From the IMG/VR virus record IMGVR_UViG_3300012971_000018, positions 47,907 to 111,906 of that record: DNA of 64,000 nucleotides. One strand, written 5' to 3'. The translations under genes and the position numbers were made by a program. Below the pieces are notes generated by a model that made no database searches, had not been told where the DNA came from, and saw only the letters and a program-made list of their open reading frames with translations. Position 1 is the stretch's first letter. Each line of letters begins with the position of its first letter. Positions 56,151 through 64,000 of the stretch are shown here, in pieces. Origin of the DNA: a virus.

Positions 56151-56726
56151 GTGCTAACTATCGACATCCAGCTTCTTGGTACCACTGCAATGCTGCACCA
56201 CAAGTTCGAGGCGGAGGCGGAGAACCCGAAGGCGACGAGGAACGTCGTCGTCGACCACGGCACCCCCCGCGAGCAGGCCGAGAAGGTCGTCTACCGCGAC
56301 GACAATGGTCTGTTCTACTTCCCGTCCAGTTGGATTACCGGTTCGATCCGGGAGGCCGGCTCGAACCACAAGCTCCGCGGCTCGCGCAAGTCCACCAAGT
56401 TCGTGGTCCCGGCGGCGATCCGCGTCGTCTCGCCGGACATCCCGCTCCTTAACGGCGACGGCAAGTCGCGCATTAAGGACTACGAGGTCGACAGCCGCCC
56501 GGTTACGATCCCGGCGACCAAGGGCCGGATTATGCGGCACCGCCCCCGGTTCGATTGCTGGTCGGCGAAGTTCCCCTTGGTTATTAACGACGACCTGCTG
56601 CCGGAGGAGTTCGTCCAGCAGTTGCTTACCGAGGCCGGCCAGTCGCAGGGCATCGGCGATTTCCGCCCCAACACCCGCGGCCCCTTCGGCTGCTTCCGGG
56701 TCGTTTCCTGGGCCAAGGCGAAGTAA
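56151..56726 (+). CDS. Standalone RAMP/Cas7-like RNA-binding protein (putative effector of the GGY-NN RNAs)
   Basis: N-terminal strand I.I.LLGTT.MLHH, YFPSSWITGSIREA helix, R.RPRF..W, C-terminal Gly-rich loop AG...GIGDFRP..GPFGCFRV; AAGGAG RBS; tracts on both sides. Confidence 0.75.
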   Translation: MLTIDIQLLGTTAMLHHKFEAEAENPKATRNVVVDHGTPREQAEKVVYRDDNGLFYFPSSWITGSIREAGSNHKLRGSRKSTKFVVPAAIRVVSPDIPLLNGDGKSRIKDYEVDSRPVTIPATKGRIMRHRPRFDCWSAKFPLVINDDLLPEEFVQQLLTEAGQSQGIGDFRPNTRGPFGCFRVVSWAKAK

Positions 56727-61860: not shown

Positions 61861-62091
61861 ATGGTGCTTCCACTCCACCTCGACGCCGACACGCTTCCGA
61901 TCATTTTGGCCAGGATCGGTACGCCGCTTAAGGGCGATGCCCAGCTTAACATGCTGGCCGACATGGGGGCGCGTCCGATGGACATTCTGTCCAATGCCGT
62001 CGTTAGCGCGGCAGCGACGGGCGGTGGATTGTCGGCGAGCGACGCTACCGCTATTACCAACGAATTGACCAAGCGCAGGCACGGCAAGTAA
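61861..62091 (+). CDS. Hypothetical protein
   Basis: AGGAG RBS; ends NELTKRRHGK. Confidence 0.65.
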   Translation: MVLPLHLDADTLPIILARIGTPLKGDAQLNMLADMGARPMDILSNAVVSAAATGGGLSASDATAITNELTKRRHGK

Positions 62092-62105
62092 AAGGTATAA
62101 TTTAA

Positions 62106-62300
62106 GGCGAGGTCTGGTACGGTCGGGTCGGGTAAGGTCAGGTGGGGTAAGGTAGGGTAGGGTGCGGTAAGGTGGTGTCCGGTGGGGTAGGGTCGGGTAA
62201 GGTGGGGTTTGGTAAGGTTAGGTGTGGTCTGGTGGGGTCGGGTCCGGTGCGGTGATGTAGGGTTCGGTTGGGTAGGGTGAGGTTAGGTCGGGTGAGGTAT
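62106..62300 (+). repeat. GGY-NN pentamer tract, 39 units
   Basis: In-phase pentamers; the last unit overlaps ATG 62299. Confidence 0.95.
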
Positions 62301-64000
62301 GGACCTTCTAATTATCAATCCAGGTGCCGTCCATGGGATTTACGGTCCGCTCGGGGATACGCTGGTCGCGGTCGAGCCCCCGCTGTGGTGCCGGTTAATC
62401 GCCGGCTATGTCCGTGCCCGGGGCTGCGACGTTCGTATCCACGACATGGAGGCCCACCGTACGTCGCCGGCCGCGGTCGCCCGGCTAGTCCAGCTTTCCA
62501 GCCCGACGCTCGTCTGCGTCGCGGTCTACGGCCACCAGCCTTCCGCCTCGACCCAGCAGATGGTCGGGGCCGGCGCGGTCTGCAAGGCGATTAAGAAGCT
62601 GCTTCCGAGCCAGCCGATCGTTATGGTTGGCGGCCATCCGTCGGCGCTTCCGGAGTACACGCTCCAGACCGAGGCGGTCGACTACGTTTGCGCGGGCGAG
62701 GGTCCGGCAACCGTTCTGGGGCTGCTCGATACCGATAACAACGAAGCAATCCCCGGATTGGTCTGGCGCCGCGGGACTACGATCGTAAAGAACCCGCCCG
62801 CGCCGCTAATCGAGGACCTGGGAGAACTGCATGGCGAGGCTTGGGACCTCCTGCCGATGCACCTCTATCGTCCGCACAATTGGCAGTGCTTTGGCGATAT
62901 GGCTCGTCGGGACCAGCCTTACGCTTCGATCTACACCTCCCTTAGCTGTCCCTATCGGTGTCTCGAAGGCAACGTAAAGGTCAATACGATCTATGGAAAT
63001 ATTCCGATCAAGACGCTGGCCGAATGTTTTGGCGATGCGGGCGTTCCCATTTACACTTACGATCCGGCGAGCGGCCGGGCATTTATCGCCGATGGCGTTA
63101 AGATTAGGAAGTACGGTAACAAGGAACAGCTCGTCCGTGTGCATTTCGACGATGGTAGCCACATCGACTGTACCCCCGACCATCGGTTCTTGCAATTTAA
63201 GTGGAGCAACGGTAGGTCGAACAGTTCCGAATGGGAGTGCGAGGCGCAACATCTCGCCCCCGGATCGCACGTACGCGCACTGCGGACGGAGCAACATCTG
63301 CTAGGTCGTTACTATATATCTTGGTCTCGTATGGGCAGAGCCTTTCGCTCCAGAATGGTTGCCGAGTATCTGTTGGGTCGAAGACTTAGACGGACAGAGC
63401 CGGTACACCACTTAGACCACGATATATCGAACGACCATCCGAGCAATCTACAGATTTGCGGATCGGCAAAGGAGCATTTTAGGCTCCATCCTGAAATATC
63501 TGCACGGATGCGTTCCGATAATCCAACCAAGAATGGCATGTCGGCCAAGTGGCGCGAGAGTATAGTGCGGGCCAATCGTGGCAAAGTACGGTCGCCCGAG
63601 GCGCGTATGCGTTATCGGTTATCCAAATTAGGCAAGAAAAATCCCAATTATCGACACGGTCGTCGAACCGGCGGGTCGTCCCGTCTAGAGGTCAACCATC
63701 GTGTAGCGTACGTCGAGCCGCTGGCCGAGCGCGGGGATGTCTATTGTTTGACTGTGCCGGAAACTGGTTGGTTCTATGCCAATAATGTTCTCGTTAAGAA
63801 TTGCAACTTCTGCTGCATCGCTGCGCCCTTCCTGGGAAGCAATCGGTATCGAATGCGAAGCCCGGTTGCGGTTGTGGACGAGATTGTCCGGCTCTATTGG
63901 CAGCACAAGGTCCGGACGTTCAAGATCGTGGACGAGATGTTTGTCCTTAACGAGAAGCACTACACCGCGATCTGCAACGGTCTAATCGCCTCCGGGATTG
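62299..64000 (+). CDS. Cobalamin-binding radical SAM enzyme, intein-containing, 3'-truncated (absent from the ORF track)
   Basis: Manual translation MDLLIINPG..EPPLW..IAGY, GGHPSALPE, GEG, TSLSCPYR[intein]CNFCC, RSP..VVDEI, KIVDEMF. Confidence 0.88.
   Translation, partial: MDLLIINPGAVHGIYGPLGDTLVAVEPPLWCRLIAGYVRARGCDVRIHDMEAHRTSPAAVARLVQLSSPTLVCVAVYGHQPSASTQQMVGAGAVCKAIKKLLPSQPIVMVGGHPSALPEYTLQTEAVDYVCAGEGPATVLGLLDTDNNEAIPGLVWRRGTTIVKNPPAPLIEDLGELHGEAWDLLPMHLYRPHNWQCFGDMARRDQPYASIYTSLSCPYRCLEGNVKVNTIYGNIPIKTLAECFGDAGVPIYTYDPASGRAFIADGVKIRKYGNKEQLVRVHFDDGSHIDCTPDHRFLQFKWSNGRSNSSEWECEAQHLAPGSHVRALRTEQHLLGRYYISWSRMGRAFRSRMVAEYLLGRRLRRTEPVHHLDHDISNDHPSNLQICGSAKEHFRLHPEISARMRSDNPTKNGMSAKWRESIVRANRGKVRSPEARMRYRLSKLGKKNPNYRHGRRTGGSSRLEVNHRVAYVEPLAERGDVYCLTVPETGWFYANNVLVKNCNFCCIAAPFLGSNRYRMRSPVAVVDEIVRLYWQHKVRTFKIVDEMFVLNEKHYTAICNGLIASGI
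62959..63801 (+). mobile_element. Intein with HNH endonuclease splitting the radical SAM CxxxCxxC motif
   Basis: Begins CLEGNV, block B CTPDH, VHHLDHDISNDHPSNL, ends DVYCLTV...FYANNVLVKN followed by Cys. Confidence 0.9.

Follow-up and report, generated by a model that had tools for sequence, protein, structure and literature searches.

The tract, its neighbours and the vipr gene

The window analysed here is a stretch of 64,000 nucleotides at the end of a virus record of 111,906 bp (IMG/VR record IMGVR_UViG_3300012971_000018) whose structural and replication genes resemble phage genes. Towards its end, a tract of pentamers is wedged between the stop codon of a 76-aa ORF (TAA, 62089-91) and the ATG of a gene for a B12-binding enzyme (Table 1). 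Fifteen such tracts with a total of 468 units are present, all on the + strand and all in intergenic gaps. The form NN-GGY is found in 441 of the 468 units (413 with GGT and 28 with GGC), and all 16 NN dinucleotides are in use. Every frame of tract 62104-62298 has stop codons, which rules out a coding repeat, and a TRAP-like RNA-binding leader, with triplets separated by 2-nt spacers, was a first idea that was dropped given the VIPR preprints and the Vipr homology described below. A scan around the tract predicts no sigma-70-type promoter and no intrinsic terminator. A perfect TATAAT lies at 62096-62101, 2 nt ahead of the tract, and TTGACC lies at 62065-62070, a spacing of 25 bp that is too long; in the absence of a properly spaced -35 element and of any call by the scan, an own promoter for the tract was rejected. 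The tract is probably co-transcribed with the aminotransferase-epimerase operon. The downstream gene contains an intein (Pfam Intein_splicing, residues 267-501) with an HNH-like stretch inside.

Table 1. Features of the window discussed in the text (position 1 is the first letter of the window)
Feature	Coordinates	Strand	Description
Truncated vipr paralogue, 109 aa	55742-56071	+	SNHKLRGSRK region in common with the full gene
vipr gene, RAMP-like protein, 191 aa	56151-56726	+	Homology to SUSP1 Vipr
76-aa gene	61861-62091	+	ORF with AGGAG 7 nt upstream; no Pfam family; contains the matched site at its 3' end
Matched site, last ten sense codons (N E L T K R R H G K)	62059-62088	+	Read with the 1-nt skip, 16/20 nt identical to NN 1-10, in frame
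VIPR vrRNA tract	62104-62298	+	39 NN-GGY pentamers (36 GGT, 1 GGC, 2 TGT); without tail or linker; abuts ATG at 62299
Candidate guide segment, NN 1-10	62104-62153	+	Decodes to [NK][DE]LTRR[NK][HQ]G[NK]
AA-GGC-GA-GGT	62104-62113	+	Copy of a punctuation motif recurrent in the arrays of this phage; GA follows 13 of 28 GGC units
Units AG, AG, GC	62154-62168	+	By comparison of tract texts, like the units on either side of the 20-nt linkers in the 55185 array (AG ending a guide, GC starting one)
Downstream gene, B12-binding (radical-SAM-type) enzyme with intein	62299-63999	+	Pfam B12-binding 6e-17, Intein_splicing 8e-11; open at the window end

[quoted passage not shown] According to these preprints, Vipr is a minimal RAMP protein that polymerises on a guide RNA (vrRNA) of GGY/NN repeats in such a way that GGY is hidden and the NN pairs are presented. 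Each NN pair reads two bases of double-stranded DNA and passes over a third, which in natural targets is the codon wobble base (bioRxiv 10.64898/2026.04.26.720920). Transcription is silenced from either strand and without a PAM, silencing is abolished when NN pairing is perturbed, and the R-loop of SUSP1 extends from the 3' end of the vrRNA towards its 5' end (VIPR preprints).

The phage studied here encodes a Vipr protein. Against the PDB, the 191-aa protein gives 36pp_D, 'SUSP1 Vipr protein', at E 1e-5 in a single-sequence phmmer search, and a profile of the protein with 28 homologues (29 sequences) gives the same entry at E 2.8e-10 over its full length (residues 1-183); more than 1000 Vipr homologues were found. 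The truncated paralogue lies just upstream of the full vipr gene, between two arrays. A Vipr protein and tandem GGY pentamers with hypervariable NN are thus encoded in the same phage genome, and tract 62104-62298 is a VIPR guide-RNA array, one of about 15 in this phage and of a known kind. It is like published VIPR in its GGY/NN pentamers, in the homology of its Vipr to that of SUSP1 (PDB 36pp) and in being phage-encoded. The 1-nt-skip code at the wobble position is seen in a natural pair of related phages (G001 and G002, below); for this tract its only candidate instance is the in-frame match to the neighbouring gene. Its 39 units and its lack of a 3' tail and pseudoknot are unlike type II VIPR, which has 9-16 units and a conserved 3' tail or handle; other arrays of this phage have GGC-TTT... 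linkers. The missing tail does not exclude membership, because other VIPR types include tail-less 'staggered' arrays according to the preprint. The tract also differs from published VIPR in lying between a stop and a start codon in a biosynthetic operon, 5 kb from vipr, and in that its only detectable match, 10 units long and 80% identical, is to the carrier's own adjacent gene.

The match to the end of the 76-aa gene

The first ten units from 62104 are AA-GGC, GA-GGT, CT-GGT, AC-GGT, CG-GGT, CG-GGT, AA-GGT, CA-GGT, GG-GGT and AA-GGT, and codon positions 1-2 of the matched site, 16 nt upstream of the tract, are AA GA TT AC AA CG AG CA GG AA. Re-extraction by script reproduces what a previous inspection of the letters (the sequence-only reading) had described, namely agreement at seven of the ten dinucleotides, in frame and on the same strand, with one synonymous leucine change (TTG versus CT) and two lysine/arginine swaps (Lys AAG versus CG for Arg; Arg AGG versus AA for Lys/Asn). 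That reading had also taken the match as support for a rule in which NN corresponds to codon positions 1-2 and the wobble base is skipped; the rule is correct, but it is a rediscovery of the published VIPR code, which does not need the match as support. On both strands of the 111,906-bp genome, the matched site is the sole match of at least 15/20 to the 10-NN string. The match is limited to units 1-10: identity along the whole 39-unit diagonal is only 33/78. The VIPR authors recognise natural targets by an NN identity of 80% or more along the entire guide; the tract as a whole falls short of this value, and 16/20 is seen over units 1-10 only. The start of the downstream gene has no match to NN 11-39.

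The score of 16/20 by itself is ordinary, and only the position of the match is unusual. Among all 15 tracts, 30 self loci match some 10-NN window at 16/20 or better, compared with 27.8 +/- 7.2 in shuffles. In shuffles of the NN strings, which the sequence-only reading had put forward as the null distribution, the number of self matches is as high as observed, and adjacency to the own tract is uncommon. With any window allowed, a match of at least 16/20 lies within 100 nt of its own tract in 10 of 400 shuffles (2.5%) and within 300 nt in 27 of 400 (6.8%). If only the first 10 NN of each tract are considered, the family-wise probability falls to ~0.0015 at 100 nt and ~0.006 at 300 nt, but the tests that give such small P values use features picked after seeing the data, for example the restriction to tract starts. 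The maximal-segment score within 500 nt is not significant, being reached in 68% of shuffles, and none of the remaining 14 tracts of the phage has a comparable neighbour match. On statistics alone, the significance of the match is borderline.

These figures bear directly on the possibility of coincidence, in which the guides of the array target unsampled elements and the 16/20 match is one of about 30 chance matches that happens to land beside the tract. The shuffle-level count of self matches, the modest any-window adjacency probability, the unremarkable segment score and the end of the match at unit 10 of 39 are all what coincidence predicts. It accounts less well for a site that is the unique top match in the genome, that is in frame and pairs with the very first unit of the tract, and whose three mismatched NN are all synonymous or conservative (P=0.019 against random replacements with an equal number of base changes). 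The evidence from other phages given below also speaks against it, and we regard coincidence as less likely than not.

The beginning of the tract has a further peculiarity. A GA unit after GGC, as in units 1-2, is expected in 7% of cases, and the observed frequency over all tracts (window positions 14401-62298; Table 1) has a binomial p = 2e-8. The 28 GGC units are preceded by AA or AG in 12 cases and followed by TTT... linkers in 6. The motif A[AG]-GGC-GA-GGT may mark vrRNA boundaries in tail-less tracts; GGC units as regular guide boundaries were rejected, their spacing being irregular. The related loci L071, L090 and L101, whose arrays are GGC-type, have GGTAC and a shift of register by 2 nt as their counterpart of this mark. 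The punctuation motif explains NN 1-2 (AA, GA), and the match without these two units is 12/16, which is not significant; this is another point in favour of coincidence.

If units 1-10 are a guide, its other end should also be considered. The units AG, AG and GC that follow may be a guide boundary, a weak hint drawn from their likeness to the units around linkers elsewhere in the phage. The want of a certain boundary mark after unit 10 speaks against a guide at this position. Because the SUSP1 R-loop starts at the 3' end, pairing confined to the 5' part of one long vrRNA would be unproductive, and the match would be workable only if units 1 to ~10 exist as a vrRNA of their own.

Homologues of the 76-aa gene and the search for targets

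An exhaustive phmmer search of 1.84 billion representatives finds 17 remote homologues of ~80 aa, and the C-terminus of the family is semi-conserved (xELTxRKxxK). The 76-aa ORF is a real gene. No homologues were found in the INPHARED phage collection (protein and DNA), in a single-protein scan of IMG/VR or in GTDB genomes, and a word-index protein search returned only the protein itself; an alignment-based scan of IMG/VR gave three loci with homologue DNA (L009, L010 and L011). The closest of these, L009, ends in NELTRRKATKA. At the three differing codons it has Leu (CTG), Arg and Lys, which are the residues decoded from the guide, and of the 4 nucleotides that separate the guide from the own allele, 3 are the guide's base in L009. 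The presence of all three differences in the closest homologue speaks against coincidence. On the sequences compared, the decoded peptide is plausible as an intermediate member of the 76-aa family, although no such allele is on record.

A member of this family is also found near a second VIPR locus. In a complete 109-kb phage (G003, IMGVR_UViG_3300050821_006672), a distant Vipr (28% identity) is followed by a short vrRNA with a GGTC-TTTGCGT tail (G003:C1:67068-67660), 2.4 kb upstream of the G003 homologue of the 76-aa gene. A gene of the 76-aa family therefore lies near VIPR loci in two lineages.

The sequence-only reading had looked to homologues and to databases for an allele with a better gapped match, and neither has provided one. 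The match to NN 1-10 is 16/20 for the own allele, 15/20 for L009, 12/20 for L010 and 10/20 for L011, so that no allele on record beats that of the carrier. The gapped pattern of NN 1-10 has no matches in IMG/VR, 7 in JGI metagenomes and 10 in GTDB genomes. None of these extends past unit 11, and all are in unrelated sequences: group II intron reverse-transcriptase-like copies and a single alphaproteobacterial sequence. Given the size of these databases, chance could account for such matches. Both the failure to find a better-matching allele (IMG/VR pattern search; L009-L011) and the occurrence of perfect 10-NN matches in unrelated sequences add to the case for coincidence. The patterns of NN 11-20, 21-30 and 30-39 each have no matches in IMG/VR, and the guides of this phage have no significant targets in the phage records G001-G004. 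However, failure to find a target says little, because no close relative of this phage is present in any collection searched and the whole 1.4-Mb set of Vipr loci yields only one cross-locus target of at least 21/24.

The alphaproteobacterial sequence (L007:11283-11311, also L008 and L114; Alphaproteobacteria MAG CAUZWH010000451.1) is of marine origin and matches NN 1-10 at 20/20, a short way upstream of a 177-aa ORF. Agreement ends with unit 10 and is probably due to chance; the site would be a perfect target if the guide were only 10 units long.

Guides beside partly matching genes in other phages

The arrangement of a guide next to a partly matching gene of its carrier recurs in four other phage records. 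L009 belongs to the record G001 (IMGVR_UViG_3300050821_001302), which has a single solo vrRNA of 17 units (G001:C1:4521-4687), 37 nt from the start codon of a divergent gene for a 445-aa acidic, scaffold-like protein. This vrRNA matches codons 1-17 of the adjacent gene, counted from the ATG, at 25/34 (74%), and matches the start of the homologous gene in G002 (G002:C1:71619-71669), a complete 111 kb relative that is Vipr-less, at 29/34 (85%), in frame. Of the seven NN at which the guide and the own allele disagree, five have the guide's dinucleotide in G002. The G001/G002 pair is the situation that had been proposed for the present tract, a guide that fits a relative's allele better than the carrier's own, and the 1-nt-skip rule holds for this natural pair, the wobble base being the one passed over.

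In G004 (C1:6750-6989), a vrRNA lies upstream of vipr, and its opening 12 NN agree in frame with the adjacent divergent portal-like gene at 19/24; no self match in 64 kb scores higher. The Vipr of G004 shares 44% identity with that of this phage across the segment that aligns best. A survey of 80 IMG/VR loci with closer Vipr homologues covered 154 guides or blocks of at least 12 NN, and only two of these, in L062 (9564-9964) and L069 (9556-9969), have a self match of at least 0.78, compared with 0.03 expected. Each is a 22/28 match in frame to a neighbouring gene ~300 nt from the tract, which in L062 is a co-directional upstream gene (227-aa ORF) and in L069 a divergent 300-aa gene whose C-terminal sequence is peptidoglycan-binding-like by eye. 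The best self matches of G004, L062 and L069 (79%) fall just below the 80% self-hit cutoff of the preprints.

All five matches, including that of tract 62104-62298, are on the sense strand and in frame, with self identities of 74-80%. When the five cases are pooled, 8 of the 23 mismatched NN are synonymous by way of six-fold codons (Leu in five, Arg in two, Ser in one), compared with 2.0 expected (P=3.5e-4), and synonymous and conservative mismatches together make up 15 of 23 (P = 5.5e-4). Such a pattern marks homologous coding sequence that has diverged, as opposed to chance resemblance. That the arrangement recurs with strong statistics in G001, G004, L062 and L069 is a further argument against coincidence at the present tract.

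The same five cases can be used to consider whether the match acts in cis. A Vipr-vrRNA complex bound weakly at the end of the upstream gene would damp read-through into its own array and the downstream operon, so that adjacency would be required by function. VIPR silences from either strand and needs no PAM, the site is immediately upstream of a tract for which the scan found neither promoter nor terminator, the five self matches cluster just under the published target threshold, and the L062 site is likewise in a co-directional upstream gene. Such autoregulation is nevertheless improbable: in three of the cases the site is within a divergent gene and not upstream of the array, the better fit of the G001 guide to the allele of a relative points to non-self targeting, and a guide with 3-7 mismatches may not bind, since perturbed NN pairing abolishes silencing (VIPR preprint).

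The reading that we favour, with modest confidence, is that the first ~10 units of tract 62104-62298 are a guide segment for relatives' allele of the 76-aa gene and that the carrier's own copy is partly mismatched. The Vipr encoded at 56151-56726 is predicted to load the guides of this phage; by the published mechanism, applied to this tract, its protomers would occupy the GGY triplets and leave the NN pairs exposed. The 5'-most ~10 units would form a separate guide or guide segment, whose NN string would represent the C-terminal coding sequence of the 76-aa family allele in competing relatives, and a better-matching allele should then exist in nature. Three codon differences in the own copy (TTG versus CTN, Lys versus Arg, Arg versus Lys) would lower the self match to 80%, and these three mismatches may be enough for escape. 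The guide and the partly immune own allele may adjoin either through selection for linkage, because a recombinant with the guide but without the matching allele would target itself, or because guides arise locally. The proposal that the guide is aimed at a relative's allele while the own allele escapes is therefore plausible, with indirect support from the conservative differences, the L009 residues and the four other records, but it is not demonstrated for this tract.

A guide aimed at the homologous element of competing relatives, with the own copy matching less so that autoimmunity is avoided, would be like the SUSP1-family solo vrRNAs, which target the vipr genes or vrRNAs of relatives with self scores below non-self scores (bioRxiv 10.64898/2026.10.15.759431). 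The targets in that study are vipr genes or vrRNA junctions, unlike the candidate target here, which is the gene of an unrelated small protein. The situation also resembles self-targeting or near-self CRISPR spacers, in that the guide resembles the own genome and mismatches give tolerance, although there are no repeat-spacer units and no PAM. Escape would differ from the point-mutation escape known for CRISPR: because the VIPR code ignores every third base, a change at the wobble position leaves the match to the guide intact, and escape is open only to amino-acid changes or Leu/Arg/Ser codon-family switches. The differences between the own allele and the guide are of these kinds, amino-acid changes and a Leu codon-family switch.

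What may be new is the placing of a guide beside the carrier's own 74-80% matching copy of the target gene, here and in four other phage records, with differences enriched in six-fold-codon switches. A guide adjoining the carrier's own allele of a protein gene, together with six-fold-codon recoding, is not described in the available passages of the VIPR preprint. The published pipelines, which report zero self hits, would have missed self matches of 74-80% because they use a self-hit cutoff of at least 80%. As a generalisation, which we put forward tentatively, VIPR guides might often be kept beside, or be born from, the carrier's own copy of the target gene, giving cis-linked pairs of a guide and a partly immune allele in which the own allele differs mainly by Leu/Arg/Ser codon-family switches and conservative substitutions, these being the sole changes that are visible to such a code and yet leave the protein unharmed. 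Adjacency and six-fold recoding would be a new element only if a wider survey confirms them. If real, the finding bears on how VIPR avoids self-targeting and on the origin of new guides, and suggests that related phages are in conflict over the 76-aa gene family; if cis-linked pairs are general, they would offer a first way into the origin of new vrRNA guides and the avoidance of self-silencing by carriers.

A candidate inter-phage target was noted among the IMG/VR loci. The guide at L081:486-575 (18 units) matches a site in another phage, L058:9845-9898, at 28/36, ~500 nt downstream of the vipr gene there, while its match to its own locus is only 0.56; by sequence comparison, this site is a candidate target of the L081 guide.
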